NCBI GenBank assembly: GCA_002716355.1 | Contig: PBAU01000004.1 | Span: 1 to 21,236, forward strand | Source of the DNA: a bacterium | GTDB lineage: Bacteria > UBP7 > UBA6624 | Direction: 5' to 3' | Length of the DNA: 21,236 nucleotides | In this document: positions 4,649 through 20,890 of the stretch, in pieces | Layout: every line of letters begins with the position of its first letter | How positions within the stretch are numbered: the stretch's first letter is position 1 | Translations under genes and position numbers: made by a program | The notes under the pieces: generated by a model | Database searches by the model: none | What the model was told of the DNA's origin: nothing | What the model saw: the letters and a program-made list of their open reading frames with translations, nothing else

Positions 4649-5713
4649 ATGAAATACAAAAAAATGATATTTTTACCTGTAATTATAGGAATTTCCTTAA
4701 GTATTGTATTATATCTGTCACAATCTTCACAAGATCATTCTGAGGAAATTGATGTTAATTCATTAATTGATATTGAAACCTCTCAAGATATTGAATCCAA
4801 AAAAATAATGTTAGAAAGTTACATTTGGAAAGATGATCAAACTTTTAAATCAAAACTACCTTCAGATGTTCAATATTTTTATACTGATAAAAAATTTGAT
4901 GATTTCCAAAATGTAGAACGAATTGATCGAATTTATGTAAAAATGAATTATGATGTAGACTCTACTGCATACATGTTTTTTCCAAAAAACCCCAATAATG
5001 AATTATTAATTTATCATCAAGGTCATAGAGGTGATATTACATTTGGTAAATCTACAATAGAATTCTTTTTGAACAAGGGTTACACAATACTTGCATTCTC
5101 GATGCCATTAATTGGTGAAAATTCAAAACCAATTGTTCATATTGATGAATTAGACGAAAATTTATTTTTAGACAGTCATGACAAATTGAGATTTTTAGAA
5201 AGTAGTACTTTTTCACCAATTAAATTTTTTCTAGAACCTATCTATGTGTCATTAAATTACATTGAATCTGAATTTAACTTTAGTTCTTATAATTTCATTG
5301 GAATATCTGGAGGTGGTTGGACTGCAGTTGTATACTCTTCATTTGACGACCGGATTTCTAAAACAATTTCAGTAGCAGGCTCTCTCCCATTCTATTTGAG
5401 AACTAGTCCTGAAAATTTTGGCGATTATGAACAAAAAATTCCTGAATTTTATGATATTGCTAACTACCTTGAATTGTATATAATGTCTGCATATGGTTTT
5501 GATCGTGGTCTTTTACAAATATTTAATGAATTTGATCCATGTTGTTTTTCTGGAACTGAATATGTAAGCTATGAAAATATTATAAAAAATAAAATTTCTA
5601 AATTAAAATCAGGAACTTTTAAAATTGAACTAGATAAAACTAACAAGGAACATTCTATATCTTCTTCTTCTTTACAAAAATCATTAATTTTTCTAAAAAA
5701 CTCAATTGATTAA
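4649..5713 (+). CDS. Membrane-anchored (N-terminal TM/signal anchor) alpha/beta-hydrolase-like serine hydrolase, possible carbohydrate esterase
   Basis: 354-aa ORF with ATG at 4649. Hydrophobic N-terminal helix MIFLPVIIGISLSIVLYL. GxSxG nucleophile elbow in NFIGISGGGWTAVVY. Upstream IYHQGHRGD may be an oxyanion-hole region. I cannot assign the acid and His of the triad by eye, so the fold call is tentative. Confidence 0.5.
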   Translation: MKYKKMIFLPVIIGISLSIVLYLSQSSQDHSEEIDVNSLIDIETSQDIESKKIMLESYIWKDDQTFKSKLPSDVQYFYTDKKFDDFQNVERIDRIYVKMNYDVDSTAYMFFPKNPNNELLIYHQGHRGDITFGKSTIEFFLNKGYTILAFSMPLIGENSKPIVHIDELDENLFLDSHDKLRFLESSTFSPIKFFLEPIYVSLNYIESEFNFSSYNFIGISGGGWTAVVYSSFDDRISKTISVAGSLPFYLRTSPENFGDYEQKIPEFYDIANYLELYIMSAYGFDRGLLQIFNEFDPCCFSGTEYVSYENIIKNKISKLKSGTFKIELDKTNKEHSISSSSLQKSLIFLKNSID

Positions 5714-6657: not shown

Positions 6658-7647
6658 TCATTTTGATGGACTTTTGTAATACCAACGTTTGAAAGGTGCA
6701 GAAAATTCTACTTTATTTTTCATAGCCCACTCATATGTGAGTTCCAACCCTTTTTCCATTGAAATTTTTGGTTTCCATTTGAGAATTTTTTTTGCTTTTG
6801 AATTATTACAGTTTAATCTCTGTACGTCATATGGTCTCATTCTACTTTCATCAACTTTAATTTTAATATCTGAGCCTGAAATTTTAATAAGATTTTTTGC
6901 TATATCTGACATCTTAATTTCATTACAACTACCAACATTCAAAATTTCTCCAATTGCACTTTTAGTTTGCGATGCTTTTAGAAATGCCTCTACGGTATCA
7001 GAAACAAAAGTGAAATCTCTTGTCGAATTTACGTTTCCAAGGTGTAACTCTTTATTTCCATTTTTAATCTGACTAATTATTTCTGGAATGATATAAGGTT
7101 CAGTAAATCTTGGACCATATGTATTAAATGGCCTAATCACAATTCCTGGGAATCCATTTTCTTTGTGTAACGTAAAAGTTGCTCTATCTGCAGATAATTT
7201 ACTCACAGCATATGTTGAATATGGTGCTGTTGGATGATTTTCATCCATTGGATGATATTGTGCAGAACCGTAAACTTCACTAGTTGAAATTTGAACAAAT
7301 GCTTCTGCCGTTTTTGATTTAACTGATGACCATGCAACATTCAGGCTTCCTATTGTGTTAACATGAAAGAAATCTACTGGGTAATAATATGAATCTGGTA
7401 TAAAGGGCAATGCAGCAAGATTAAAAATAATTTCTTGATCTTTTACGGTTTTTGCAACAATTTTTTCATCAGTAATATCACCCTTTACAATCTTTATTTT
7501 ATGTTTTGATATGTAATGTCTCTTTCCAGATGAAAAATTATCTAAAACTGTAACTTTTGCACCATGTTTGACTAACTGTGAAACAACTTCGGAACCAATA
7601 AAGCCTGCTCCTCCTGTAACTAATACTCTCTTATCTTTTAATTTCAT
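6658..7647 (-). CDS. Extended SDR NAD-dependent epimerase/dehydratase; motif signature closest to UDP-glucuronate decarboxylase (UXS/ArnA C-terminal) or NDP-hexose 4,6-dehydratase types
   Basis: 329-aa ORF with ATG at 7645-7647. VLVTGGAGFIGSEVV Rossmann motif. STSEVYG (UXS/ArnA-like; RmlB types usually have STDEVYG). YAVSK catalytic YxxxK. RPFNTYGPR. Lies 4 nt downstream of the preceding SDR gene, so they form an operon. Confidence 0.85.
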   Translation of the reverse strand: MKLKDKRVLVTGGAGFIGSEVVSQLVKHGAKVTVLDNFSSGKRHYISKHKIKIVKGDITDEKIVAKTVKDQEIIFNLAALPFIPDSYYYPVDFFHVNTIGSLNVAWSSVKSKTAEAFVQISTSEVYGSAQYHPMDENHPTAPYSTYAVSKLSADRATFTLHKENGFPGIVIRPFNTYGPRFTEPYIIPEIISQIKNGNKELHLGNVNSTRDFTFVSDTVEAFLKASQTKSAIGEILNVGSCNEIKMSDIAKNLIKISGSDIKIKVDESRMRPYDVQRLNCNNSKAKKILKWKPKISMEKGLELTYEWAMKNKVEFSAPFKRWYYKSPSK

Positions 7648-7651
7648 TTTT

Positions 7652-8608
7652 TTACATTCCTAACCTATGTTTATACCAATTAATTGTTTTTTCAATTCCT
7701 ATATCTAAAGATGTTTCTGCTTTAAACCCAATTTTTTCTTCAGCTTTTTTATTTGACAATACTCTACGTTTTTGACCTGATGGTTTATCCATATCGAATT
7801 TTATCTCAGGATCTGTATTGGTAATACTTAGAATTTTTCTTGCTAATTCATCTATAGAAACAAATTCTCCACTAGCTAGATTAATCGGATCTCCAACACA
7901 ATAATTTTCCATTGCAAGTAACATTCCTTTAGCCGCATCTTTTGCATAGATATATTCTCTAATCGGACTACCGTCCCCCCAAATTACAAAAGGATCCATT
8001 TTCTTAATTGCTTTCATTATTAGAGAGCCTAACGCATGTGCTGTTTCAAGATCATCACTATCTCTAGGACCATAAGAATTTGATGGTCTAACAATTGCTA
8101 TGTCCATCCCATATTCTTTGTGAAATGCTATTGCTTGTCTCTCTCCCATACGTTTTGACCATGAATATGATGCATGTGCTTCTGGTGGATTTCCTTTCCA
8201 TGCATCTCCTTCTTCGAGAGTTTTCTCATCATTTGGATAAATACAAGTACAACTCGCATAAAGAAATTTTTCAATTTTTTCATTTTTTGCACTTTCTAAA
8301 ATATTCCCATCCATGATGAGATTAGGGGTGAGTGTACTGGCAGGATGAGTGCTGGTTCTACCTAAGCCGCCTGTATATGCTGCTAAATGAAAAATATAAT
8401 CCATATCCTTCACTACATTATCTGAGAATTTCCTATCAGTCAAATCTCCCCGCATAATATCTAATTCTAATTTCTTTAATTCATCTGGAATCTCTCTTTC
8501 ATGTTCAATAATTCTGACATTTGCTCCTTTTTCTACTAGTAGTTCCACCAAATGAGAACCAATCATACCGGTTCCTCCTGTAACAAGAATTTTTTTATCA
8601 GAATACAT
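7652..8608 (-). CDS. Extended SDR NAD-dependent epimerase/reductase (GDP-mannose 3,5-epimerase / GDP-fucose-synthase-like signature)
   Basis: 318-aa ORF with ATG at 8606-8608. ILVTGGTGMIGSHLV. ASCTCIYP (SSxCIYP-type motif of 3,5-epimerase/4-reductase enzymes). YSWSK catalytic YxxxK. VRPSNSYGPRD. One nt separates it from the aminotransferase stop. Confidence 0.8.
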   Translation of the reverse strand: MYSDKKILVTGGTGMIGSHLVELLVEKGANVRIIEHEREIPDELKKLELDIMRGDLTDRKFSDNVVKDMDYIFHLAAYTGGLGRTSTHPASTLTPNLIMDGNILESAKNEKIEKFLYASCTCIYPNDEKTLEEGDAWKGNPPEAHASYSWSKRMGERQAIAFHKEYGMDIAIVRPSNSYGPRDSDDLETAHALGSLIMKAIKKMDPFVIWGDGSPIREYIYAKDAAKGMLLAMENYCVGDPINLASGEFVSIDELARKILSITNTDPEIKFDMDKPSGQKRRVLSNKKAEEKIGFKAETSLDIGIEKTINWYKHRLGM

Positions 8609-8609
8609 C

Positions 8610-9716
8610 TTAATCTATAACCAATTTTCTAATAATATCTGTAATGTAGTCTTGTTCTTCTTCTGTCATCTTCAAAAATATTGGTAATCCTAACACTCTT
8701 TCTGAAATATCTTCGCATATTGGAAGCATTCCATTTGAAAAATTATATAATTTTTTATAAATTGGTTGTAAATGTAATGGAGGAAAATTTATTCTTGTTT
8801 CTACTCCATTGTTTTCTAATCCTATTCTAATTTTTTCTCTTAATTTATTATTTTTAAACAGAATTACGTATAACATGAATGTGTGTTTATTATAATTACG
8901 AATCGTTGGCGTAATAATTTCTGAAATTCCTTCCAATTTTTTATTATAATAGTCTGCTAATTGGTTTTTCTTATCTAATATTTCATCTATTCTTTTTAAT
9001 TGAGAAATACCTAGTGCTGCATTAGGATCAGGCATTTTTGCATTCCATCCTATTTCAACATGATGATATCTTCTATCTGCACCGTTTTTTCTTAAAATTT
9101 TACATTTTTCGGCTAATTCATTATCGTTTGTTACAATTAATCCTCCTTCTCCTGTATTCAGATTTTTATCTGGCCCAAATGAGAATCCGGTCATTGTACT
9201 AATTGAACCAACTTTTTTATTTTTATGAACTCCACCTAATGCAGGTGCTGCATCTTCAATTACCGCTAACCCATGTTTTTCGGCTATTTCATTAATCTCT
9301 AAAATCTCTGCGCTCTGTCCACCATAATCAATTGGCATTATTGCTTTTGTTTTTTCTGTTATTACCGCTTCAATCTTTTTTGGATCTAAGTTGAATGTAT
9401 CTGGTTCAATGTCCACAAATATTGGGTGTGCATTTCTTTGAATTATTACATTAGATGTTGCAGCAAACGTAAATGGAGTTGTAATTACTTCATCTCCATT
9501 TCCTATACCTAGTGCGTCTAATGATAAAAGCATAGATGATGTCCCAGAATTTACTGCAATAGCATTTTTTACACCCATATAGTCTGCCATTTTTTCTTCA
9601 AATTCCGTCACAATTGGACCTGGACCCAAATGATTCGTAATTACGGCATCATACATTGCCTGAGCATCTTCTTCTAAAACATTTGGTTGAGCCACCCTAA
9701 TCTTAAATTCAGCCAA
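8610..9716 (-). CDS. PLP-dependent nucleotide-sugar aminotransferase (DegT/DnrJ/EryC1/StrS family)
   Basis: Family features: AQPNVLEEDAQAMYDAV N-terminus, NSGTSSMLLSL, ITTPFTFAATSN, VIEDAAPALG, and FSFGPDKNLNTGEGG carrying the Schiff-base Lys. The ORF track starts at a TTG at 9761. I prefer the in-frame TTG at 9714-9716 (MAEFKIRVAQPN...). It gives a family-typical N-terminus and lies about 29 nt downstream of a TATA-like box. The start is uncertain (9716 vs 9761). Confidence 0.85.
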   Translation of the reverse strand: MAEFKIRVAQPNVLEEDAQAMYDAVITNHLGPGPIVTEFEEKMADYMGVKNAIAVNSGTSSMLLSLDALGIGNGDEVITTPFTFAATSNVIIQRNAHPIFVDIEPDTFNLDPKKIEAVITEKTKAIMPIDYGGQSAEILEINEIAEKHGLAVIEDAAPALGGVHKNKKVGSISTMTGFSFGPDKNLNTGEGGLIVTNDNELAEKCKILRKNGADRRYHHVEIGWNAKMPDPNAALGISQLKRIDEILDKKNQLADYYNKKLEGISEIITPTIRNYNKHTFMLYVILFKNNKLREKIRIGLENNGVETRINFPPLHLQPIYKKLYNFSNGMLPICEDISERVLGLPIFLKMTEEEQDYITDIIRKLVID

Positions 9717-9737
9717 AACTATGTTTTTTAGACTCGT

Positions 9738-9750
9738 TTTGTATAATAAC
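9738..9750 (-). promoter_or_regulatory. Candidate archaeal TATA box for the aminotransferase-SDR-SDR operon
   Basis: The minus strand reads GTTATTATACAAA, centred about 29 nt upstream of the TTG at 9716. The geometry fits a leaderless or short-leader archaeal promoter. By eye only. Confidence 0.3.
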
Positions 9751-9790
9751 TGTACGAACAATTTGTACCGTTTGTGAACAGTAGTAACGA

Positions 9791-9821: not shown

Positions 9822-10514
9822 TTGTCAACTGCAGTACTAATACTCACATTAAACGAAATTGATGGAATAAAGGTAATTTTACCTAAAATTGATAAATCTT
9901 GGGCAGAAGAAATAGTTGTTATTGATGGAGGTTCTACAGATGGAACTATTGAAGAAGCAAAAAAAATGGGTTTTAAGGTAATCGTACAAAAAAAACGTGG
10001 ACATGGTGATGCTATTGTAACTGGTGTTAATGCAACATCATCTGATAATATTGTAATTTTTGGCCCCGATGGGAATCATGAACCTGAAGAAATTCCAAGA
10101 TTAATAAAAAAAATAGAGGATGGTTTCGATCAAGTATTAATATCTAGATTTGGTAAAGGTTCAAAAAATTATGATGCAGTTGGAGTGAAAGGAAAATTAA
10201 TTGATTATTTTGGAAATAAAATGTTTGCATTTCTTGTCAATGTTTTTTTTGGTGGTCATTGGACTGATAGCTTAAATGAAAGTAGAATAATTTCAAGAAA
10301 AGCATTTTTTGATCTAGATTTTGATTCGTTACAAATGGGTTCAACACAATTAATGAGTATTAGAGGACTAAAGAAAAAACAAAAGATATGTGAATTAGTT
10401 GGGAATGAAGGTGCTCGTATTGGTGGTAAAAGGAAAATGCGTCCATTACATGTTGGTGCTGATCTTAGTAGACAAATATTATCTGAATTTTATTTTTGGT
10501 GTAAGAAAAAATGA
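9822..10514 (+). CDS. Glycosyltransferase family 2 (GT-A fold), soluble/peripheral, no TM helices
   Basis: 230-aa ORF with TTG start at 9822. AVLILTLNE...IVVIDGGSTDGTIEEAKKMG is the canonical GT2 N-terminal nucleotide-binding region. FGPDGNHEPEE sits in the DxD position. Its stop overlaps the next start (ATGA at 10511-10514). Confidence 0.75.
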   Translation: MSTAVLILTLNEIDGIKVILPKIDKSWAEEIVVIDGGSTDGTIEEAKKMGFKVIVQKKRGHGDAIVTGVNATSSDNIVIFGPDGNHEPEEIPRLIKKIEDGFDQVLISRFGKGSKNYDAVGVKGKLIDYFGNKMFAFLVNVFFGGHWTDSLNESRIISRKAFFDLDFDSLQMGSTQLMSIRGLKKKQKICELVGNEGARIGGKRKMRPLHVGADLSRQILSEFYFWCKKK

Positions 10515-11218
10515 AAACTGATGATTATGAATTTTATAAAGATTCTTTTGATATATTAGATAATAATTATGCTTTATGGATGAAAGAGAAAACTAATTTA
10601 TTGATTAAATTATTTGAAGGAAAAAAAATTGTTGAAGTTGGATGTGGAAATGGCTTATTATTAAAAAATTTTCCGAGAGATAAATTTGATTTTACAGGAA
10701 TTGATTTTTCAAAAGGCAATCTTCAACATGCAAAGAAAAAAAATCCTGATCTAAATTTTTTTCAAGCAGATCTTACAAAAAAATCTTCATGGAATGAACA
10801 TGAAAATAAATTTGATACTGTGCTTTGTTCAGAAGTACTAGAACATATTGAGGATGATGGTCTTGCGTTGACAATTTTAAATTCATTATTAAAAACAAAT
10901 GGTACGTTAGTTGTTACTGTTCCTGCATTTCCATTACTTTTGTCAAAATTTGACATAAAAGAGGGACATGTTCGTAGATATACAAAAAATTCTATATCTG
11001 AAATTGTAACTAACGCTGGCTTTATGATTGAAGAAATTAGATTTTGGAATGTCTTTGGTTTTTTTGGTTGGTTACTTTTTTTCAAAATTCTTAATCGTGG
11101 ATTTGAAGAATCCACTAATTCGTTTCTTTCTTCGTTAATGGGTAATTTTCTTAAAATTGAATCAAAGATAAAATTCCCTTTCGGACAGACAATTATCTTA
11201 AAAGCACGGAAATTATAA
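10511..11218 (+). CDS. Class I SAM-dependent methyltransferase
   Basis: 235-aa ORF with ATG at 10511. Motif I VEVGCGNGLLL, acidic loop GIDFS, motif CSEVLEHIEDD, post-III VVTVP. Hydrophobic C-terminal segment FWNVFGFFGWLLFFKIL may be a membrane-association helix. Translationally coupled to the GT2 gene. Confidence 0.8.
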   Translation: MKTDDYEFYKDSFDILDNNYALWMKEKTNLLIKLFEGKKIVEVGCGNGLLLKNFPRDKFDFTGIDFSKGNLQHAKKKNPDLNFFQADLTKKSSWNEHENKFDTVLCSEVLEHIEDDGLALTILNSLLKTNGTLVVTVPAFPLLLSKFDIKEGHVRRYTKNSISEIVTNAGFMIEEIRFWNVFGFFGWLLFFKILNRGFEESTNSFLSSLMGNFLKIESKIKFPFGQTIILKARKL

Positions 11219-11240
11219 TCAATGAAAAAATGTTCTCTAA

Positions 11241-11250
11241 TTTAAATAGG
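11241..11250 (+). promoter_or_regulatory. Candidate internal TATA box upstream of the GT-C gene
   Basis: TTTAAATAGG, centred about 26 nt upstream of the GTG at 11271, within the 52-nt gap after the methyltransferase gene. Confidence 0.3.
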
Positions 11251-11270
11251 AATCTAAAATGTGAATCAAC

Positions 11271-12920
11271 GTGTTAGTATCAGATCAGTCAATAAATTTC
11301 TCAAAAAAGAAAATTCTTTCAATATTGGTAATAGTTATGATAATTTCTTTAGGTTTCAAATTATACCTTATAGATTTCTCTTCACTACCTGTTGAAGATA
11401 CATATGGTTATGTGATTCGTGCCATTGCTCATACAAATGGAGATTTTTCTGAAAATGAACGAAAAACTTTGGGTTGGTCGATATTTCTTTCACCATTCAT
11501 GTTACTTTTGGATTCAACTGAACCATTAGATTACATCAATGCAGCTCGAATACTGAGTATTATTGTTTCAACGGTAACCATCTATCCCATGTATCTATTA
11601 GCAAGAAAATTCTTCAATGAAAAATTTTCTATTGCTGCATCTTGTTTGTTTGCATTTCAACCTCATCTAAATTATAATTCTGTACAGGGAATATCTGAAC
11701 CATTATTTATTCTTCTTTCAATTTTAAGTTTTTATTTCATATTGCATCAAGATAATAGAATAAAATATGTGGCATTTCTTACTGCAGGACTAATGTTCTG
11801 GGTAAGATTCAATGGTATTATCGTTTTAATTATTATTTCAATTTTATATTTCTACAATAGTAATTATTCAAAAAAACAAATTTCAAAATTTCTTCTTGCA
11901 TTATTTATTTTTATTCTTGTGCTTAGTCCAACTCTAATTCAACGGTATGATCAATTTGGTGATCCTCTCTATTTTTCTCAATCAAATACTATATTCTTAG
12001 AAAATTATGTTTCAGTTGTTGCAGAAAATACTGATATGGAAAATTATACTGCGTCAGATTATATTGAAGATAATGGAATTTTATCATTTTTTAATAAATT
12101 TGTGCTAAATGGTATTTTTAACATTGCACAATCAATCTATAAAATATTATTTCCTTACATGATTGTCTTATTCCCTATCGGAGTTTTCTTCTCTATTCGT
12201 GCATTTGATCAATCAAAAAAATTTCTTAAAAGTAATTGGATATGGATTTTTGCGTCACTAGGTGTATTTCTCATATATTTTTCAATTGTACCTGAAAAAA
12301 GATTATTGTACTTTCTTATACCTAATTTGATACTATTTTCAGTTATTCCTATTGAGCGATTAATAAAATATGGATTGAGTACATTTTCATTTAACAGAAA
12401 TCAAAAAAATATCTCATTCATAATTGTAATCTTAATAATATTGGTATTGTCTATTGTTTATACTTCTTATTATGAACTAACAGATAAAAAAACTGAAAAT
12501 GAGAAATTATTATTTTCTGAAATAATTAATAAAAAATTAAATGGAAAAATACTTGATGCTGGTTATACATTACAAAGTCTCATGTATGTTTCTTTGAATG
12601 AACCTGATAGTAATTTTAAAGAATTTGGTATATCTAAGAATGTTAACGATTGGTGGATTGGAACAAAAAATCTCAATGTAATCAATTTGTATGCAACTGA
12701 TTTTGAAAATTTTATTTTAGTTTCACAAGAAAATAATCTAAATTATCTATCAATAAATAAAGATGGAGTTAATATGGAATGGTATCCTTACTTAGAAGAT
12801 GTTTATGATAATGAAAATGATTTTCCTCAACTCAAAAAAATTTTTGATTCACAAGAGAATGGATTTGAAAATTTTCATGTAAAAATATTTGAAATACGTA
12901 ATGATGATTTTAAACCTTAA
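11271..12920 (+). CDS. GT-C fold membrane glycosyltransferase (ArnT/PMT_2-like, polyprenyl-phosphate-sugar dependent) with C-terminal extracytoplasmic domain
   Basis: 549-aa ORF with GTG at 11271. More than 10 predicted TM helices. Acidic motif in the first loop (LPVEDTYGY). Core segment ARILSIIVSTVTIYPMYLLARKFFNEKFSIAASCLFAFQPHL...SEPLF is typical of the PMT_2/ArnT family. A soluble tail of about 145 aa follows the last TM. Paralogous to the 14999-16621 product. Confidence 0.7.
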   Translation: MLVSDQSINFSKKKILSILVIVMIISLGFKLYLIDFSSLPVEDTYGYVIRAIAHTNGDFSENERKTLGWSIFLSPFMLLLDSTEPLDYINAARILSIIVSTVTIYPMYLLARKFFNEKFSIAASCLFAFQPHLNYNSVQGISEPLFILLSILSFYFILHQDNRIKYVAFLTAGLMFWVRFNGIIVLIIISILYFYNSNYSKKQISKFLLALFIFILVLSPTLIQRYDQFGDPLYFSQSNTIFLENYVSVVAENTDMENYTASDYIEDNGILSFFNKFVLNGIFNIAQSIYKILFPYMIVLFPIGVFFSIRAFDQSKKFLKSNWIWIFASLGVFLIYFSIVPEKRLLYFLIPNLILFSVIPIERLIKYGLSTFSFNRNQKNISFIIVILIILVLSIVYTSYYELTDKKTENEKLLFSEIINKKLNGKILDAGYTLQSLMYVSLNEPDSNFKEFGISKNVNDWWIGTKNLNVINLYATDFENFILVSQENNLNYLSINKDGVNMEWYPYLEDVYDNENDFPQLKKIFDSQENGFENFHVKIFEIRNDDFKP

Positions 12921-12946: not shown

Positions 12947-14938
12947 TTATATTCCCATTGTTGAATGTGTTGATTCAAAACTTTTTCCATCATTTTTATC
13001 TGAATTTCTGTCAACACGTGTATTGTCTATTCTTAGATTTTCAGGGTGACATTTGTAATCACGTGAACGTCTACCATACCAGATTGTTTTATAGCCCCAT
13101 TTTATGGGGTCCGTCTCGTCAATTGGATTTTTATAATTATATGTGGTCTTTTTTCCTATTAAACTAGAATTTTCTTCAGTGAAAAACTTTTTCCAATCAA
13201 ACTCAAAATCTGAAGTTTTTATTTCATCATTATAATCTCGCGTAGTAAGAATGAAAACCTGAAATTTAGCTAAATCTCTTAGTACATTTTCTGACTCGTT
13301 TAATCCACATTCTTTATCAACATAAGTAAGTAAATTAAAAATTGCATCTTGCAGTACATCTTTATCTCTTGTTAATCGTAACCAACTTGCTTCTTCAATT
13401 GGCCAAATTATATCTCCTAGATCTGCATCGTGATGATCCCATCCCTTTCCTGAATATCCATTATCTCTAAATTCAATGACTTTGTTTAATTCATCATTTA
13501 AAATTGAATCAGATTTTCGTGCATATTCTAAAAATTTTTCATAGAATGTAACAAATTGTAAATTATGTGTTTTATTAAAATAACTTGTAACATATTCTAA
13601 AATTCCGAGACTTTGTAATGTTAAAAATGACCACGAATAAAGATAAATTTCTTTTAATTCATCTAAAGAACACATATTATTTTCTGTAGCCAGATATTCA
13701 AATTCTTGAATCCCTCTATTATGAATTGAAGAATGAACTAACATTATTGGGGATTTCACCAATTTTATTCCATATTTTTCTCTGTATTCTGGAACATTCA
13801 TTGGTGCATTTGGCAGAACACTACAATGATAAATAAAAACTGTATCGATTTTTGTATGTGCAATATTTTCTAATCCTTGTTTAAATGTCTCTAGCGTTTC
13901 ACCTGGAAGTCCCATAATTAATTCAGTATATGTTGGAATATTATTTTCCCTAAACGTTGCTGTTAATTCTCCAAATGAATCAAATTTAATATTTGCTCGT
14001 TTCATAATGTTTAATGTATTAGTATCAAGTGATTGTACAGCTAGAGTAACTGCACCTAATACTCCACCTTCTTGTAACTCTTTTGCAATTGGAATGATTC
14101 TATCTGATGAATTCTTTGCCCATGCTGGTCTAATTCTTTCTGGAAAATGTTTTTTTAATGCAACCTCTTTTAATTTTTGTGCAATTTTAAAATCTCTTTC
14201 TTGAAAAATTCCGAAATTTGCATCACAACAATCTATGTATGGTATTTTATTATCGCCAAACCACTCGATTTCTTGAAATAATTTTGATTCTTCCCATTTT
14301 CTAACTCTGCTTTTTGTTGCACTTCCCCAGTCACAAAATGTACATTGATATGGACAACCTCTATTAGTTTCCCACGAAGAAATCCATTTTATTCCATCTA
14401 TTTTATCAACTAGTTCCCAAACTGTATTTGTTAAATATGGTGATGGTAGTTCATCTAAGTTACTAATTCTTTCTTGTGGCGCTGTTCTGAAATCTTTTGT
14501 TTCTATACCTTTAATTTGTGAATAATTTTTGTCTTTCAAATATGCAATAAGAATTTCTTCAAATACATATTCTCCTTCACCGTGGACAATTATATCCACA
14601 AAAGGATTTTCTTTAAAAAAATCTGGAGATAAATCTGGTATCTGTGGTCCGCCAAAAATTATAGTACATTCTGGATTTATCTTTTTTATTTCTCGTGCAA
14701 GATATGTTGTAATTTCCCAATTCCAAACATAACAAGAACAAAGCAAAATATCACTATTCTTACATTCTTGAATGTAATCCTCAACCTTATTTCTAAATAC
14801 AAAACTTTTCTCAAAACTAAAATTTGATGCTAATTCAGGTTTAGACTTGATATATGCTACAAGGGTTGCTATACTATATGGAAAATGAATCTGATCTCCA
14901 TATTGATAATTAAATTGTGAACTGTTAACTTTTATCAT
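12947..14938 (-). CDS. Class B (B12-binding domain) radical SAM enzyme with long C-terminal extension
   Basis: 663-aa ORF with ATG at 14936-14938. N-terminal cobalamin-binding-like Rossmann region (DILLCSCYVWNW...TIIFGGPQIPD...IIVHGEGEYVFEEIL). Radical SAM cluster motif NRGCPYQCTFCDWG, with Cys195/199/202 codons at 14354-14356, 14342-14344 and 14333-14335. I do not recognise the roughly 250 residues after the TIM-barrel core. Confidence 0.85.
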   Translation of the reverse strand: MIKVNSSQFNYQYGDQIHFPYSIATLVAYIKSKPELASNFSFEKSFVFRNKVEDYIQECKNSDILLCSCYVWNWEITTYLAREIKKINPECTIIFGGPQIPDLSPDFFKENPFVDIIVHGEGEYVFEEILIAYLKDKNYSQIKGIETKDFRTAPQERISNLDELPSPYLTNTVWELVDKIDGIKWISSWETNRGCPYQCTFCDWGSATKSRVRKWEESKLFQEIEWFGDNKIPYIDCCDANFGIFQERDFKIAQKLKEVALKKHFPERIRPAWAKNSSDRIIPIAKELQEGGVLGAVTLAVQSLDTNTLNIMKRANIKFDSFGELTATFRENNIPTYTELIMGLPGETLETFKQGLENIAHTKIDTVFIYHCSVLPNAPMNVPEYREKYGIKLVKSPIMLVHSSIHNRGIQEFEYLATENNMCSLDELKEIYLYSWSFLTLQSLGILEYVTSYFNKTHNLQFVTFYEKFLEYARKSDSILNDELNKVIEFRDNGYSGKGWDHHDADLGDIIWPIEEASWLRLTRDKDVLQDAIFNLLTYVDKECGLNESENVLRDLAKFQVFILTTRDYNDEIKTSDFEFDWKKFFTEENSSLIGKKTTYNYKNPIDETDPIKWGYKTIWYGRRSRDYKCHPENLRIDNTRVDRNSDKNDGKSFESTHSTMGI

Positions 14939-14953
14939 ATAATCTGGACCTCA

Positions 14954-14970
14954 AATTTATAATTTATAAT
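14954..14970 (-). promoter_or_regulatory. Candidate TATA box for the radical SAM gene
   Basis: The minus strand reads ATTATAAATTATAAATT (plus strand AATTTAT repeated about 2.4 times), centred about 24 nt upstream of the ATG at 14938. Confidence 0.35.
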
Positions 14971-14998
14971 TTTCATATAATTTATTACTAAATTTCCT

Positions 14999-16621
14999 TT
15001 ATTTTGTTAAATTATCAAATTTCTCATAGTCAATCTTGAATATTTTAACATGGTAACTGAATTTATCTTCTTTTGAGTCATAGACTATTTCTAAAAATGG
15101 ATATTTATGTTCATTTTCTCTAATATCTTTGATAAATTCTGGTCTATTTGGATTATCATCTACTAACAAATATTCTAAATTCTCATCTCTTGCATTATTT
15201 AGAAATTCATTTAATGATCTTGCCTCATAACAACTATCACATCCAATTGTTATTCCTCCACTTGCACCCTGAATTACTTCTATCTGGTTGGGGATATCAG
15301 CAAATAATACAGGAAATTTATCTAGAATTGTTGCTTCTATAATTTTTCCACTAACATAAACTGATTCAGGATCATAATCATTAATTACATTTGTCATCTC
15401 GCTTATTTTTATTCCAATTTTATATGCTTCAATTTCTCGTTCATAATCAATTTTTTTATATTCCAAAAAAATAATTGAGGTAAGAATTATCCCAACAATC
15501 AACAAACCAATTAACAAATTATCTTTTTTTATTTTTCTTGTTATACTCTCAATAAAAGACAGTGAAATCAAAATTAAAATTGGTACAGTTATGAACAAAT
15601 ATTTCACTTCAGAAAATTCTCTCGAAAATGCATAAAATGCTGGAATTATCATTATAATACTAAAAATAAAAATTATCTTTCTATCTGAATTAAAATTTTT
15701 AAAAAATAAAATTAAACCACCAGGAATAAAAAATAATAAGTATGGAATCATTAACCAACCAAATAATTTAACCATGTTTAACATTCCTTTAGTAATCTTT
15801 GTTAGAAAATTATCCTTTGTATCAAACATTGCGTTAGTAACTGGGTCAGATTGATAGAATGTTGACTGTGATATAATATGACTAAATATCCCATCATTGC
15901 CTGTAACTTCTATTCTTAATCCCATTGCAGGAAGTAATATCAGAATAAAAACACCTAGTGCAACAAAATATTTTGGAATATCTTTCTTATGATCTTTAAA
16001 TCTGAAAAATAATAAAATAAAGAAAGGAACAATTAGTAAAATCCCTTCATATCTAATTAATGATAATAATGCTAGTAATCCAAATGAAAGATAAATCATC
16101 TTAAATTTTTTTGATAAAAATAGGTAAACACTAAATGTAAATAGAAAAATAAAAATGGATTCTGGTAACCCTGAAATTGAATTTATCAATAATCTTGGTT
16201 CAAAAACAAAGATACATGCACCAATTAATGCAATTTTGGTCTTAAAAAACCGTTTAGATAATAAGAAAATAGGAATTATTGTAGCAGCTGAAAAAATTAT
16301 AGATGTTAATCTTTGTATAATATGGAAATCTATGAATGTATCTGGATTTGTTATGTTGAAGATTACAGATAAGAATACTGGCCAACCATTATTTGGGAAG
16401 TTATAACCTCTTGGTAATTCTCCTAGAATGCTTGTATCTACTGCATACCAAAAATATAACGAACCATCTAAAGTTATTGGTAATTCAAAAGATGTATAGT
16501 AAATTCTGATAATTATTCCAGCTGTGAATAATAAAATTAATTGAATTCTTATATCCAAAAATATTCTTGAAAAATTACTTTCTTTCGTAGAAGTGAGATC
16601 TTTTTCCATATCTTTATTCAA
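14999..16621 (-). CDS. GT-C fold membrane glycosyltransferase (ArnT/PMT_2-like), paralogue of the 11271-12920 product
   Basis: 540-aa ORF with TTG at 16619-16621 (alternative ATG at 16607-16609). Multi-TM. Core segment QRLTSIIFSAATIIPIFLLSKRFFKTKIALIGACIFVFEPRL...PESIF aligns with the other GT-C. The C-terminal soluble domain ends YPFLEIVYDSKEDKFSYHVKIFKIDY, compared with FPQLKKIFDSQENGFENFHVKIFEIRN in the paralogue. Confidence 0.7.
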   Translation of the reverse strand: MNKDMEKDLTSTKESNFSRIFLDIRIQLILLFTAGIIIRIYYTSFELPITLDGSLYFWYAVDTSILGELPRGYNFPNNGWPVFLSVIFNITNPDTFIDFHIIQRLTSIIFSAATIIPIFLLSKRFFKTKIALIGACIFVFEPRLLINSISGLPESIFIFLFTFSVYLFLSKKFKMIYLSFGLLALLSLIRYEGILLIVPFFILLFFRFKDHKKDIPKYFVALGVFILILLPAMGLRIEVTGNDGIFSHIISQSTFYQSDPVTNAMFDTKDNFLTKITKGMLNMVKLFGWLMIPYLLFFIPGGLILFFKNFNSDRKIIFIFSIIMIIPAFYAFSREFSEVKYLFITVPILILISLSFIESITRKIKKDNLLIGLLIVGIILTSIIFLEYKKIDYEREIEAYKIGIKISEMTNVINDYDPESVYVSGKIIEATILDKFPVLFADIPNQIEVIQGASGGITIGCDSCYEARSLNEFLNNARDENLEYLLVDDNPNRPEFIKDIRENEHKYPFLEIVYDSKEDKFSYHVKIFKIDYEKFDNLTK

Positions 16622-16672
16622 TTTAATAAAAATCCATTTTTCTTCCTAATGAAGGAAACTGATGTTTTATCA

Positions 16673-18145
16673 CTAAAATTCAAAGTAAATAAATTCCTCT
16701 GCACTTCCTCTGTAAAATAAAACTACTAAAAGCATGATGATAGTCAAGAAAATTAACCAATGTTTTACTTGTAATGATGAAATTCTTTCACTCACATTTT
16801 TAATTTTTAATGTAATAATTTGTAATATAAGAAAAATAGGAATTAGTATCACTGCAAATTCATTTTGTTGGATAAAATTAATTGTACCATCTATCTCGAA
16901 ATCCCAAATCAAATATTTCTTCATTGAATAAACCATCTCATCAACATCTCTTACTCTAAACGAGATAAATGCAAAAAATATTAAAAACTGTGTTATTAGA
17001 ATACTAGTTATTTTTCCAATTTTTGTTTTAAAGAATTTATTCTTACTAAAATTTGGGAATTGTTTTCTAACCAAAGTATCTACTGCAACATAGATTCCAT
17101 GAATTATACCAAAAATTATAAAATTCCATCCTGCACCATGCCATAAACCTAGTAAAAAGAATGACGTAAATAAACTAGAGAATAATCTTTGTGACGATTT
17201 CCTATTTTTAAAAATTAATGGAAAATAAAGATAATCTCTAACCCATGTTGACAGGCTAATGTGCCATCTTCTCCAAAAATCTGATGGAGATGTAGAAAAA
17301 AATGGTTTTCTAAAATTCGGTGGAACATTTATTCCAATTATTAGTGCTGCTCCAATTGCTATGTCAGAGTATCCTGAAAAGTCTCCATATACTTGAAAAC
17401 CAAATCCAATTGTACCTAAAATAATTGTAAATGACTCATGTCCTATTGGACTATTGAATACATTATCTACCATTGGAGCAATATTATCTGCAAAAAATAA
17501 TTTTTTTAGAAAACCAATTGCCATCATTGTGATTCCTAATTTTAAATTCCTATTATTGATGAAAAATTGTTTTAGTTTAATTTGTGATTTAAGATTTGAA
17601 ATTTTTTCATTTAGTTGCGGTAAAAAATCACTTGCACGTAATATTGGTCCAGCAACTAAGGTCGGAAAAAATGCTACAAATAATCCATATTGTAAAATAG
17701 ATCGGGTTGGTTTTAATGAACCCCTGTAAATATCAATTATATAACTAATTGACTGGAAAGTATAGAATGAAATTCCTATAGGTAAAATTAAATTCAAAAA
17801 TGGGATCTCTGTAAATCCTAAAACTCCAAAAAGTTCATTAATTTGTGAAATTGCAAAGTCTGTGTATTTAAAAAAACCAAGTAAACCTAAACTTCCGCCT
17901 ATTCCAATACCTAACAGAATTTTTCTATTCTTAGGATCTGTTGATTCTGCTATCTTTTTACCTATGAAGTAATGCAAAATTGTTGTATAAACTAATAATA
18001 AAACTAAGTAGCTATCTGAAAAGTATAGAAAGAAAAAACTAGCAACTACTAATAGCGTATGTTGGAATTTTCGATTTTTATAACACACTATAGCTGTTAA
18101 AACAGCTATAAAGAATACGATGAACTCTACCGTTGTAAATAGCAT
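16673..18145 (-). CDS. MBOAT family membrane-bound O-acyltransferase (AlgI/DltB/PatA-like)
   Basis: 490-aa polytopic ORF with ATG at 18143-18145. Both family histidine motifs are present: DFWRRWHISLSTWVRDYLYFPL (His295, nt 17261-17263) and LLGLWHGAGWNF (His336, nt 17138-17140). Also ISFYTFQSISYIIDIYRG and FFPTLVAGPI, typical of AlgI/DltB. Confidence 0.9.
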   Translation of the reverse strand: MLFTTVEFIVFFIAVLTAIVCYKNRKFQHTLLVVASFFFLYFSDSYLVLLLVYTTILHYFIGKKIAESTDPKNRKILLGIGIGGSLGLLGFFKYTDFAISQINELFGVLGFTEIPFLNLILPIGISFYTFQSISYIIDIYRGSLKPTRSILQYGLFVAFFPTLVAGPILRASDFLPQLNEKISNLKSQIKLKQFFINNRNLKLGITMMAIGFLKKLFFADNIAPMVDNVFNSPIGHESFTIILGTIGFGFQVYGDFSGYSDIAIGAALIIGINVPPNFRKPFFSTSPSDFWRRWHISLSTWVRDYLYFPLIFKNRKSSQRLFSSLFTSFFLLGLWHGAGWNFIIFGIIHGIYVAVDTLVRKQFPNFSKNKFFKTKIGKITSILITQFLIFFAFISFRVRDVDEMVYSMKKYLIWDFEIDGTINFIQQNEFAVILIPIFLILQIITLKIKNVSERISSLQVKHWLIFLTIIMLLVVLFYRGSAEEFIYFEF

Positions 18146-19104
18146 TATTCTTTTAACTCCTTAATCATCCATTCTTTGATATCATCTGTGTAGATCTGTG
18201 CATTTCTATTAATTGCAACATGATATGGGTCACTCCAAATCTCATTCTCAGCATATTTGTCGTGTAAATATAATATGTCAATATCAAATCTCTGAGAAAT
18301 ATTATCTATTATTTTCTCAAAATTCTCAATCTCACTCTGTTTCACATGTTCAAAAACTAATTCATTGTAAGGTGGTGTGAAAATCAAAACTTTAATTCCA
18401 TTTGATTGAAATGTTTCAATAATTTTGTTTACAGCTAAAAATTCACTGTTTTCAATATCATTATCAATTCCTCTGAATCCTACACCTTCTCCGTAAATAG
18501 ATTTAATCTCATCTTGAGAAAGAATATTGTTTTCTCTGTAATTCATAAATGGATGAGTTGGATAATCTGGTCCTCTCAAAATATATTTGATTGATTGTAT
18601 CATTCTATCTTTTGGTGAAGTTGGAAATTTTTCAGAAAAATCTAAATTAAATATTGAGGATAAGAAATTTACAAAAAATTTGTCAGGCTCTACGATATTT
18701 CCAAATAACCCTCTATTGAAAAACTCACTTCTATAATCTCTTGATTTCTCAAAATCTGTCATACTTATTCCATAAATAATGACTTTTGGTTCTAGTTCTA
18801 CTAAGTGCATCATACTATTCACTCTTCTAGTAGGTGTATCGCTCATATCTGCTAAATTATAAATCTCATAGTCTAATTGATTCATTATCAATTCATCTGA
18901 AATTCTATCCACATCTATTGAATAGACATTACTGGCACCTATGAAAAAAATTGATTCTTTTTTAATGATCTCTTTCTCTGAAAAAATACCATTCCATTCT
19001 GGATCATAAATGTGAAGATATAGATCCATAAATAAATAAAATATTCCACCTGTAAAACAAAATGCAACAAGTAATGCTAAAAGAATTTTAAAATTCAAAT
19101 CCAT
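18145..19104 (-). CDS. Membrane-anchored extracytoplasmic partner of the MBOAT; DltD/AlgJ-like SGNH-type acyl-transfer protein (tentative)
   Basis: 319-aa ORF with ATG at 19102-19104. Single N-terminal TM (ILLALLVAFCFTGGIFYLF). FFIGASNVY (Ser58) near the N-terminus and WSDPYHVA (Asp292-x-x-His295) near the C-terminus match SGNH block I and block V spacing. Its stop overlaps the MBOAT start by 1 nt (TAATG at 18143-18147). A GAGG lies about 8 nt upstream of the ATG. Confidence 0.55.
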   Translation of the reverse strand: MDLNFKILLALLVAFCFTGGIFYLFMDLYLHIYDPEWNGIFSEKEIIKKESIFFIGASNVYSIDVDRISDELIMNQLDYEIYNLADMSDTPTRRVNSMMHLVELEPKVIIYGISMTDFEKSRDYRSEFFNRGLFGNIVEPDKFFVNFLSSIFNLDFSEKFPTSPKDRMIQSIKYILRGPDYPTHPFMNYRENNILSQDEIKSIYGEGVGFRGIDNDIENSEFLAVNKIIETFQSNGIKVLIFTPPYNELVFEHVKQSEIENFEKIIDNISQRFDIDILYLHDKYAENEIWSDPYHVAINRNAQIYTDDIKEWMIKELKE

Positions 19105-19117
19105 TTAGGCCTCTATT

Positions 19118-20002
19118 TTATTTATTATTTTCACGAACAACATTAACTAAACTATATAGTAAAATTGCAGATATGAGAAATATCACTGCAATTAAAATTG
19201 TACCTGCAGCAACTACTGTCAAATTAGTATTTAATCTACCAATTTCTGCATAATACTGTATTGAAAAATATGTAAAAGCTATTCCTACAATGAAAAATAT
19301 TACTGATGGTATCCCATAGAATTTTAATGGATGTTCAATAGATGTATATTTTATTGTACTAAAGATCACTGATGAACCATGCGTTACAGGATTCTGTGTA
19401 GATGTATCTCCTTCATACAAAATTTTAATTGGAACTTCTGAAATTTTAAAATTCTTGCTACTTGCTTTAATTAAAATTTCAGTTGATATTCCCATACCTA
19501 ACTCAGATGGATTTAATTCATCAACAACTTGTTTTGAATAAGCTCTAAACCCACTTTGTGAATCAGTTAATTTCTCTTTTATACTTGCGTTTGTTATCTT
19601 TGTAATTACTTTAATTCCAACTCTTCTATAATTGGGTACTTCTTTCTCACTATCATCTAAAAATCTTGAACCTACAACTAAATCAGCATCTTGATTATTT
19701 ATTGGTTCTATAACTTTTTGAACATCTTCGATTCTATGTTGTCCATCAGCATCAAATGTTACTAAAATATCACCTTCGATATTTTTAGCCTTTGTAAAAA
19801 TACTTCTAATTGCTCCGCCATACCCTAAATTTTTTTCATGGTTAACCACTATTGCTCCCATTTTTTCAGCTATCTGTGATGTCAAATCCGTTGAACCATC
19901 ATTGCACACTATCACCTTATCTGCAATTTTTGATAATTTTGTAATGATTGTTGCAATGTTTTTTTCTTCATTAAATGCCGGAATTCCTACAATTATCTTC
20001 AA
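19118..20002 (-). CDS. GT2 polyprenyl(dolichyl)-phosphate sugar synthase type glycosyltransferase (GtrB/ArnC/DPM1-like) with two C-terminal TM helices
   Basis: 294-aa ORF. TTG at 20000-20002 gives a canonical MKIIVGIPAFNEEKNI N-terminus. VIVCNDGSTDLT, FDADGQH (DxD) and GFRAY motifs. Two C-terminal TM helices (GIPSVIFFIVGIAFTYFSI; VVAAGTILIAVIFLISAILLYSL), as in GtrB/ArnC-type enzymes. Confidence 0.85.
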   Translation of the reverse strand: MKIIVGIPAFNEEKNIATIITKLSKIADKVIVCNDGSTDLTSQIAEKMGAIVVNHEKNLGYGGAIRSIFTKAKNIEGDILVTFDADGQHRIEDVQKVIEPINNQDADLVVGSRFLDDSEKEVPNYRRVGIKVITKITNASIKEKLTDSQSGFRAYSKQVVDELNPSELGMGISTEILIKASSKNFKISEVPIKILYEGDTSTQNPVTHGSSVIFSTIKYTSIEHPLKFYGIPSVIFFIVGIAFTYFSIQYYAEIGRLNTNLTVVAAGTILIAVIFLISAILLYSLVNVVRENNK

Positions 20003-20140: not shown

Positions 20141-20890
20141 GTGTTAGTTGATGAAATTAAAGCAATATTGGAAAAAAATGATTATGAGCTAGATCCTGAT
20201 GGAATATCACGAATTCAAACCATGTTAGAATCAATAAGGGATGATAATCAAATAAACAAACTTGACTTCATAATTAACTGGTTTAATAAAAAACGTGAAG
20301 AATCTGATATGGTTGTTGAAGAAATTGGAATTAAAGAATTAGATAAATGGAATGTTGATCATAATTCAGGAAATATTTTTCATGAATCGGGAGGATTCTT
20401 TAGAATCATAGGAATCAAAGCTTCAAATACATTTGATCGTGAAGTTGGCAAGAAAGGATGGACTCAACCAATGATTGCAAAAAACCCTGGAGGGATATTA
20501 GGAATTATCATGAAAAGAATCAATGGCATTCCTCATTATCTTCTACAAGCAAAGGCAGAACCTGGTAACATTGGAAAATTACAATTATCTCCAACACTTC
20601 AAGCAACAACAAGTAATTTGTTAAAAGCTCATGGTGGCGCAAAACCATTATTTGCAGAATATTTTAATGAAGAAAATAATCCAAAAATCATCTATGCAAA
20701 ATGGCAATCAGAAGATGGTGGTAGATTTCATTTAAAATCAAATTATAATATGATTGTAGAAGTAAAAAGTGATGAAGAATTAGAAATTCCAGATTCATTC
20801 ATTTGGGTTACATTATATCAGATAAAACAATTAATGAAGATTGAAAATGTTGTTGGACCACATGTAAGAGGAATTATTTCTTATCTGTGA
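20141..20890 (+). CDS. NDP-hexose 2,3-dehydratase family protein (Hexose_dehydrat / EvaA-like), single-domain half-size form
   Basis: 249-aa ORF with GTG at 20141. Strong family pattern: GGFFRIIGIKA...REV..KGWTQPMI...GGILGII...GIPHYLLQAKAEPGNIGKLQLSPTLQATTSNLLKAHGG..PLFAEYF...WQSEDGGRFHLKSNYNMIVEV...IPDSFIWVTLYQIKQLM...NVVGPHVRGIISYL. Only one such domain is present; characterised enzymes carry two. Confidence 0.8.
   Translation: MLVDEIKAILEKNDYELDPDGISRIQTMLESIRDDNQINKLDFIINWFNKKREESDMVVEEIGIKELDKWNVDHNSGNIFHESGGFFRIIGIKASNTFDREVGKKGWTQPMIAKNPGGILGIIMKRINGIPHYLLQAKAEPGNIGKLQLSPTLQATTSNLLKAHGGAKPLFAEYFNEENNPKIIYAKWQSEDGGRFHLKSNYNMIVEVKSDEELEIPDSFIWVTLYQIKQLMKIENVVGPHVRGIISYL

Follow-up and report, generated by a model that had tools for sequence, protein, structure and literature searches.

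Among the class B, or B12-binding, radical S-adenosylmethionine (SAM) enzymes, the described systems closest to the gene reported here are TokK and ThnK, the carbapenem C6 methylases of Streptomyces (PDB 7kdx, 7kdy), and CysS, which iteratively extends an O-methyl group in cystobactamid (PDB 9n1b-d). The cluster that holds TokK, ThnK and CysS together with Swb9 and PctJ is marked by a Trp under the cobalt, a CX3CX2CXW motif and Asp-Ala-Asn at the 'GGE' position, and its characterised members are methylases, mostly with repeated transfer (PMC9204698). We describe here a gene of this type in a 21,236-nt stretch of DNA (contig PBAU01000004.1, hereafter the window), where it lies on the - strand at 12947-14938, encodes a protein of 663 aa, and forms part of a glycan locus. 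From its fold, its motifs and its setting we think that the protein is probably a soluble, cytoplasmic, cobalamin-dependent radical SAM C-methyltransferase, possibly an iterative one, acting on an activated sugar of an envelope glycan pathway.

The window protein has the same three-domain architecture as TokK/ThnK, with a template modelling (TM) score of 0.88 over the whole chain, and shares with them the Trp under the cobalt, the CX3CX2CXW motif, the Asp-Ala-Asn sequence (DAN) and the equivalent of TokK Arg280. It differs in being only 30% identical, in belonging to another clade, and in being an archaeal protein encoded amid glycan genes, with no antibiotic genes nearby. With CysS it has in common the fold, the Trp under the cobalt and the Trp after the Cys motif, but CysS Trp271 corresponds to Arg270 here, the identity is 32% over 434 residues, and the window has no nonribosomal peptide synthetase context. 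Other class B enzymes stand further off. GenK/GenD1, Fms7 and MoeK5, the class B C-methylases that act on antibiotic sugars, we set apart on the basis of the literature: they belong to other sequence clusters in the published network, and their substrates are aminoglycoside or phosphoglycolipid antibiotics, not envelope glycans. GrsA/GrsB, Gmm, Cgm and Ted are also archaeal class B radical SAM proteins with an N-terminal B12-binding domain; they are MoeK5-like according to the literature, whereas the window protein is TokK-like and has relatives in bacteria without glycerol dialkyl glycerol tetraethers (GDGTs).

Fold, family and signature residues

The open reading frame (ORF) list and its translation place an ATG start at the head of the gene, and the N-terminus MIKVNSSQFNYQYG is kept among homologues in the alignment. 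The coordinates given in a preliminary description of this DNA, for both the 663-aa ORF and its CPYQCTFC motif (residues 195-202, nt 14333-14356), match exactly. The parts of the gene are as follows.

12947-14938, - strand: radical SAM gene of TokK/CysS type (ORF, Pfam, phmmer against PDB, AlphaFold2 model)
14489-14938, - strand: predicted N-terminal Rossmann-type cobalamin-binding domain, about residues 1-150 (PF02310, gap-free TokK alignment)
14720-14737, - strand: SCYVWN, in which Trp72 is nt 14723-14725
13739-14386, - strand: radical SAM core, about residues 185-400 (PF04055)
14327-14356, - strand: [4Fe-4S] motif C195-x3-C199-x2-C202-x-W204
14216-14224, - strand: Asp239-Ala240-Asn241 at the 'GGE' position
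14129-14131, - strand: Arg270, at the position of TokK Arg280 and CysS Trp271
13016-13738, - strand: predicted TokK/CysS-type C-terminal domain, about residues 401-641, mostly helical (profile and Foldseek)
12950-13015, - strand: C-terminal tail, residues 642-663, predicted to be disordered (model confidence below 50)

Two Pfam models are matched above their cutoffs, B12-binding (PF02310; residues 52-129, 35.6 bits with a cutoff of 32.1) and Radical_SAM (PF04055; residues 191-354, 44.1 bits with a cutoff of 29.5). When PDB sequences were searched with phmmer, residues 20-587 aligned to residues 24-609 of TokK (7kdx) with an expectation value (E) of 6.9e-91 and 308 bits, CysS (9n1b) followed with E 5e-65, and the other class B structures gave E 5e-6 or worse. 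TokK residues 24-125 align to the N-terminal domain without a gap. The best NCBIfam match is to NF033712, the KedN5 family of methylcobalamin-dependent radical SAM C-methyltransferases (E 4e-87), and all remaining models, among them PhpK, HpnR and BchE, score 69 bits or less, with HpnJ at 69 bits and the ladderane-lipid model at 65 bits. GenK, Fom3, HpnP and BchE had been put forward as comparisons; they prove to be related at the generic class B level, and TokK/ThnK, CysS and the KedN5 family are closer.

An AlphaFold2 model built from 61 homologues has a mean predicted local distance difference test score (pLDDT) of 89.4 and a predicted TM score of 0.87, and pLDDT falls below 50 only at residues 205-209 and 642-663. 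The latter segment is the C-terminal tail, which is missing from homologues of 641-647 aa. In a Foldseek search of PDB the model matches TokK with TM 0.88-0.89 across 672 alignment columns, CysS with TM of about 0.72-0.76, and then TsrM with 0.47-0.55. It superposes on the cobalamin-bound TokK structure, in line with the cobalamin-binding-like N-terminal domain noticed earlier. Taken with PF02310, PF04055 and the TokK match, the model bears out the original proposal that this is a class B radical SAM enzyme, with predicted binding of the corresponding cofactors.

The C-terminal third of the protein had been called unassigned, with a DUF4070/DUF4080-type domain as one suggestion. Pfam does leave it so, as residues 401-663 matched none of its models, those two types included, even at E up to 10. 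The region is nevertheless assignable by other routes. As a single sequence searched against PDB it finds TokK marginally (E 0.025), and a profile made from 61 family members finds the TokK C-terminal domain with 47.7 bits and E 1.4e-11 (computed with Z equal to the number of sequences in the PDB set), and a partial CysS sequence with 32 bits. Since the whole-chain TM score is 0.88, the C-terminal 36% must superpose too. On the strength of the full-length phmmer match, the structural model and this profile we assign the region as a predicted TokK/CysS-type C-terminal domain, in which H402, E412, G497, W512-P513, E516, W614, W620 and Y628 are conserved. [quoted passage not shown] No counterpart of TokK Tyr652 could be assigned from the sequence of the window protein.

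All three motifs of the TokK/CysS cluster are present, as Trp72 in SCYVWN, CPYQCTFCDW204, and D239-A240-N241. Their counterparts in TokK are Trp76, which lies under the cobalt, Trp215 after the Cys motif, and DAN at 250-252, and in CysS the first of these is Trp75; both Trp residues are missing from GenK, Fom3, PhpK and TsrM (bioRxiv 10.1101/2021.07.10.451909), so that the window protein departs from GenK in having both. In the pairwise match to TokK the SCYVWN that holds Trp72 aligns without gaps to the SCYVWN of TokK. In an alignment of 143 family sequences Trp72 is invariant (143/143), C195, C199 and C202 are likewise invariant (143/143), and Trp204 is kept in 136. D239 and N241 are invariant in the 61-homologue family alignment, and A240 is conserved there at 90% or more. 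A further position bears on the substrate. TokK Arg280 binds the substrate carboxylate, and the R280Q mutant is nearly inactive (bioRxiv 10.1101/2021.07.10.451909); the residue at the same position in CysS, Trp271, serves in gating and substrate binding. Arg270 of the window protein is kept in 9/9 archaeal and 6/8 sister-clade sequences and is replaced by Ser in a more distant clade. Its place at the TokK Arg280 position suggests that, close to the carbon that reacts, the substrate may carry an anionic group, either a phosphate or the carboxylate of a uronate.

The protein lacks any hydrophobic segment (the maximum Kyte-Doolittle mean over 19 residues is 1.0), and for this reason is expected to be soluble and cytoplasmic.

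Distribution and glycan setting

The closest genome matches to the window protein are in metagenome-assembled genomes (MAGs) and single-cell genomes of Nitrosopumilales, Nitrosopelagicus and Nitrosarchaeum, at 52-71% identity, and the neighbouring genes in the window also match Nitrosopumilales best. These matches identify the host as a thaumarchaeon, a possibility that the preliminary description had raised, and place it in the order Nitrosopumilales. Relatives are numerous, with 1,553 clusters (at 50% identity) found at E 1e-30 or below, and 540 matching stretches on JGI metagenome contigs. The window protein falls within a Nitrosopumilales clade whose sister is a bacterial clade (Sulfuritalea, Nitrosomonadales and marine metagenomes; 51-56% identity), and TokK and CysS are on other branches, at 30-32% identity. 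The tree is a neighbour-joining tree without support values and gives a coarse placement only. On this placement the protein does not appear to be an orthologue of either TokK or CysS, and belongs instead to a large uncharacterised clade of Nitrosopumilales, the public labels for which are 'radical SAM superfamily enzyme YgiQ' and 'hypothetical protein', together with one automatic ThnK-type label from JGI.

Ninety-five Nitrosopumilales loci with an orthologue (54-98% identity) were collected, their ORFs called and the neighbouring genes clustered, which left 70 distinct contexts, each with four or more neighbouring genes; neighbours were counted within five genes. Nucleotide-sugar or glycosyltransferase families are found within this distance in 66/70 contexts, and the linkage of orthologues to glycosylation genes, on which the earlier proposal depended, is thus conserved. 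The most frequent families are GT2 (74%), DegT (66%), the fucose-synthase-type and 4,6-dehydratase-type short-chain dehydrogenase/reductases (SDRs; 57% each), GT-C (51%) and LPG_synthase_TM (27%), and a TylC3-type C-methyltransferase of nucleoside diphosphate (NDP) hexoses is present in 17/70 (24%). A GT-C gene is the immediate neighbour of the radical SAM gene in 20/70. An obligatory partner gene was sought among these contexts and none was found, GT2 being the most frequent, and the order of the genes is heavily rearranged. The conserved feature is residence in a variable glycan island and not in a fixed operon.

The setting is similar in bacteria. A recurring block in the sister clade, beside a Wzx-type flippase, comprises a pair of hexapeptide acetyltransferases, a 377-aa SDR and the radical SAM gene, along with a GT2 and a short-chain dehydrogenase, and at other sister-clade loci the radical SAM gene lies between epimerases and DegT, near a cytidylyltransferase. 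More distant homologues of 30-35% identity, from Woesearchaeota, Saccharibacteria, Haliscomenobacter and an alphaproteobacterium, adjoin epimerases, GT2, sugar dehydrogenases and sugar C-methyltransferases.

The gene content of the window, judged with Pfam and NCBIfam, is that of a glycan locus, and includes a GT4 glycosyltransferase and a protein with an LPG_synthase_TM domain. Its principal features apart from the radical SAM gene are as follows.

84-2652, + strand: nucleotide-sugar 6-dehydrogenase (UDP-ManNAc-dehydrogenase-like) and an overlapping AsnB-like amidotransferase without the glutaminase half
6658-7647, - strand: LegB/RmlB-like 4,6-dehydratase
7652-8608, - strand: GDP-fucose-synthase-like SDR
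8610-9761, - strand: DegT/PseC-like aminotransferase
9822-10514, + strand: GT2 resembling dolichyl-phosphate (Dol-P) hexose transferases
10511-11218, + strand: class I SAM methyltransferase
11271-12920, + strand: GT-C glycosyltransferase
14939-14998, - strand: AT-rich spacer of 60 nt, containing TTATAAATTATAAATTT
14999-16621, - strand: GT-C glycosyltransferase
16673-18145, - strand: MBOAT protein
18145-19104, - strand: DltD-like protein
19118-20002, - strand: polyprenyl-phosphate-sugar-synthase-like GT2
20141-20890, + strand: NDP-hexose 2,3-dehydratase homologue of 249 aa (PF03559, E 3.6e-64)

The radical SAM gene is convergent with the + strand GT-C gene, the two stop codons (the latter at 12920) being 26 nt apart. 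On its other side 60 nt separate the radical SAM ATG from the upstream stop codon (14999) that ends the - strand GT-C gene, so that the radical SAM gene closes a run of genes on one strand, from 20002 down to 12947, in the order GT2, DltD-like, MBOAT, GT-C and radical SAM. The order of the upstream series (14999-20002) is preserved in L024, L028, L029 and L035, and the convergent module at 9822-12920 adjoins the radical SAM gene in 11/70 contexts. Some 16-32 nt upstream of the ATG there is an AT-rich element, TTATAAATTATAAATTT. At a G+C content of 28% (25-34%) the DNA of the window is so AT-rich that this string cannot be told from background and is uninformative as a TATA-like box; the 60-nt spacer could be a putative archaeal promoter or a mere intra-operon spacer.

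The 2,3-dehydratase homologue, which is kept in L024 and L028, points to deoxysugar chemistry in the locus. It has one copy of PF03559, and in related contigs a GFO/IDH/MocA oxidoreductase gene and another DegT gene come after it; NDP-hexose 2,3-dehydratases are usually about twice as long, with two domains. The predicted 6-dehydrogenase and amidotransferase pair fits the formation of a uronamide sugar, and sugars of this kind are known from the N-glycan of Nitrososphaera viennensis (PMC12153357). The MBOAT and DltD-like genes (16673-19104, - strand) overlap. This pair resembles, as we take it, the two-component acylation systems for extracytoplasmic polymers, here in an archaeon. Two proteins could be placed in no family, one of 261 aa (2678-3463, + strand) with a weak NAD-binding N-terminus only, and one of 354 aa (4649-5713, + strand) with a hydrophobic N-terminal stretch; both recur beside the radical SAM gene in L001, L007 and L021. 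NCBIfam gave no informative match for these two proteins, the GT-C genes or the DltD-like protein.

Several observations were made on related loci. In L048, L050 and L082 the radical SAM gene is present as two tandem paralogues that share 57% identity, and L049 and L054 have such a pair too, in which the end of the contig truncates the upstream copy. The pairs adjoin a module of DegT, TylC3-type C-methyltransferase and SDR genes, which suggests that specificities have diversified within the island. The TylC3-type enzyme (Methyltransf_13/14; for example at 3176-4444 of L059, cluster C5) recurs in this DegT, C-methyltransferase and SDR module beside the radical SAM gene, and by sequence marine Nitrosopumilales probably make C-methyl-branched amino deoxysugars. 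A further cassette, with genes for an FkbH-like loader, an ACP-like protein of 78 aa, a protein of glyoxalase fold and a phosphopantetheinyl transferase, lies within the glycan island at 18672-21436 of L021 and also in L007, L022, L023, L046 and L064, which hints at carrier-protein-derived acyl decorations on sugars in thaumarchaeal islands. In L076 the radical SAM homologue (10001-11941) is split into two ORFs (10001-10819 and 10868-11941), as either a pseudogene or an assembly error. Locus L009 (CAYFJI010000104.1) is labelled as part of an Acidiferrobacteraceae MAG, and its proteins are 79-93% identical to those of the window, with the order radical SAM, GT-C, methyltransferase, GT2, DegT and SDR kept; the contig probably came from a thaumarchaeon and ended up in a bacterial MAG through binning.

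Near-full-length relatives of 30-57% identity are also encoded on at least 591 stretches of IMG/VR viral contigs (L108-L186 among them), many of these contigs being 40-370 kb in length and most of the matches having epimerase, DegT or sugar-dehydrogenase genes within 6 kb. In BFVD two or three proteins of 'uncultured Caudovirales phage' (A0A6J7XS70, A0A6J5LGQ4) have the same three-domain fold, with TM of about 0.72. A search of GenBank phage genomes gave a single weak class B match of 25.6% identity, and we accordingly take the viral origin of the IMG/VR contigs only as called. Some relatives of 835-1073 aa in a Woesearchaeota-type clade (P0284, P0311, P0326) contain intein and homing-endonuclease domains (PF14890, PF14528) as insertions in the radical SAM protein.

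Proposed reaction and alternative explanations

Methylation of a cell-surface sugar appears the most likely role, because the gene sits among sugar-building genes. By analogy with the TokK/CysS cluster, a first SAM would methylate cob(I)alamin to methylcobalamin, and a second would be cleaved at the [4Fe-4S] cluster held by Cys195, Cys199 and Cys202 to give a 5'-deoxyadenosyl radical, which would take a hydrogen from a substrate carbon that is sp3 and unactivated. The radical so formed on the substrate would then accept the methyl group from methylcobalamin, with Trp72 keeping the cobalt free of a lower ligand, and cob(II)alamin would be re-reduced at the end of the cycle. More than one transfer may occur (methyl to ethyl to isopropyl), since the characterised members of the cluster typically add more than one methyl group. 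The likeliest substrate would be an intermediate supplied by the 4,6-dehydratase, SDR, aminotransferase and 2,3-dehydratase encoded nearby, namely an NDP-hexose of the 6-deoxy, 4-keto or amino type, or else a substituent carried by it, and the modification would precede loading onto dolichyl phosphate by the GT2 enzymes and transfer by the GT-C enzymes outside the membrane. Two more speculative versions can be envisaged. A methyl branch introduced by the TylC3-type enzyme, present in a quarter of contexts, might be extended further, or an O-methyl group from the neighbouring class I methyltransferase might be extended in the manner of CysS, as the position of that methyltransferase gene near the radical SAM gene would allow.

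Several points weigh against this proposal. Both of the structurally characterised relatives, TokK and CysS, act on pantetheinylated substrates that are not sugars, and class B also holds enzymes that are not methylases, such as OxsB, BchE, Grs and Ted (PMC9204698). The score of 292.8 bits for the KedN5 family falls well short of the 700 bits set as curated cutoff, and the match is confined to positions 54-402 of the 624 in the model, that is the first two domains, so that the protein lies outside the family as NCBI defines it. The absence of a constant partner gene speaks for a variable glycan island, not a defined pathway step, and N-glycosylation was undetected in Np. piranensis, the subject of one marine Nitrosopumilus glycoproteome (PMC12153357). 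The chemistry we attribute to the clade is assigned from homology and context.

The alternative nearest to a methylated nucleotide sugar, and one that we regard as rather unlikely, keeps the same chemistry and places it on a lipid-linked sugar, either a dolichyl-phosphate-sugar or a glycolipid at the cytoplasmic face, with the channel between the cobalamin and C-terminal domains taking the phosphate and the start of the polyprenyl chain. The window gene does have a GT-C on both sides and Dol-P-sugar-synthase-like GT2 genes nearby, and across the archaeal contexts GT2 is the commonest neighbour and GT-C adjoins in 20/70; TokK and CysS, moreover, hold elongated pantetheinyl substrates in their inter-domain channel. 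A precedent is offered by MoeK5, held to add a C-methyl group to a lipid-linked uronamide sugar during the biosynthesis of moenomycin, but by sequence this enzyme falls with Fom3 and HpnJ in another cluster. The window protein has no segment for membrane association, and the recurrent neighbours in sister and distant clades are soluble enzymes (SDR epimerases and dehydratases, DegT, acetyltransferases), not GT-C. A nucleotide sugar is somewhat favoured over a lipid-linked sugar as the presumed substrate, since the protein is predicted to be soluble, its companions across clades are soluble nucleotide-sugar enzymes, and the bacterial contexts are without GT-C. The dependence of TokK and CysS on pantetheinylated substrates raises a different thought, that the enzyme methylates an acyl group bound to a carrier protein or pantetheine which is later joined to an amino sugar. 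The cassette of FkbH, ACP and phosphopantetheinyl transferase genes 7-10 kb from the homologue in L021-L023, and found also in L007, L046 and L064, would suit such a route; it occurs, however, in only 6 of about 100 loci and is missing from the window, and we consider the route highly improbable.

The remaining alternatives concern the reaction itself or the class of molecule. A TokK-like fold could support radical chemistry on a sugar other than methylation, such as rearrangement, ring contraction, dehydrogenation or epimerisation, given that OxsB, BchE, HpnJ, Grs and Ted are class B enzymes that do not methylate and that this clade, on a separate branch, is only about 30% identical to TokK and CysS. 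We find this improbable, as every characterised enzyme in the TokK/ThnK/CysS/Swb9/PctJ cluster is a methylase or predicted to be one, and the residues linked to methylcobalamin (the Trp under the cobalt, the Trp after the Cys motif, and DAN) are kept in the clade. A membrane-lipid enzyme that is a mere neighbour of the glycosylation genes, a GDGT cyclase or methylase like Grs, Gmm or Cgm, was among the options in the preliminary description, and it has in its favour that the B12-binding radical SAM proteins include Grs, Gmm, Cgm and Ted and that Thaumarchaeota carry Grs homologues. The comparisons disfavour it. Gmm is similar to MoeK5 (E 9e-63), the published similarity network puts MoeK5 together with Fom3 and HpnJ, and the lipid-related models HpnJ and ladderane reach 69 and 65 bits against 293 for the KedN5 family and 308 for TokK. 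The sister clade consists of bacteria without GDGTs, in which the gene is found in polysaccharide clusters, and in the archaea its position shifts from genome to genome within a variable island, with tandem paralogues, unlike a core lipid gene. A Grs-like role, judged indirectly through family models and published groupings, is unlikely, and a membrane-lipid function of any of these kinds deserves next to no credence.

Novelty and implications

A literature search for cobalamin radical SAM enzymes in polysaccharide, O-antigen or nucleotide-sugar pathways, or in Nitrosopumilus, returned no relevant paper; most subscription journals lay outside its coverage, and this is weak evidence. Within that scope the suggestion that a glycan-directed class B radical SAM enzyme in archaea would be new still holds. 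The fold, the cofactors and the chemistry are those of a known family, the clade is uncharacterised, and the novelty lies in a probable new substrate class. The characterised enzymes of the TokK/CysS cluster all tailor bacterial antibiotics, and the same type is common in marine Nitrosopumilales.

If only a single methylation of a known sugar is involved, the result is a useful annotation and no surprise. If envelope sugars are methylated, the enzyme would add a further cobalamin-dependent function in these archaea, would be a source of unusual alkyl-branched sugars in organisms, the marine ammonia oxidisers, whose surface glycan chemistry is hardly characterised at all (PMC12153357), and would provide new substrates for a scaffold that is mechanistically well understood. 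A wider generalisation, which we offer tentatively and with considerable doubt, is that the TokK-like alkylase clade, abundant in marine ammonia-oxidising archaea and with sister clades in bacteria and homologues on contigs called as viral, decorates cell-surface sugars with C-methyl and perhaps also ethyl or isopropyl groups. Marine ammonia-oxidising archaea produce cobalamin themselves. Were the generalisation true, it would predict alkyl-branched sugars of a kind so far undescribed in archaeal glycans, and would tie cobalamin to diversification of the envelope in hypervariable glycan islands.

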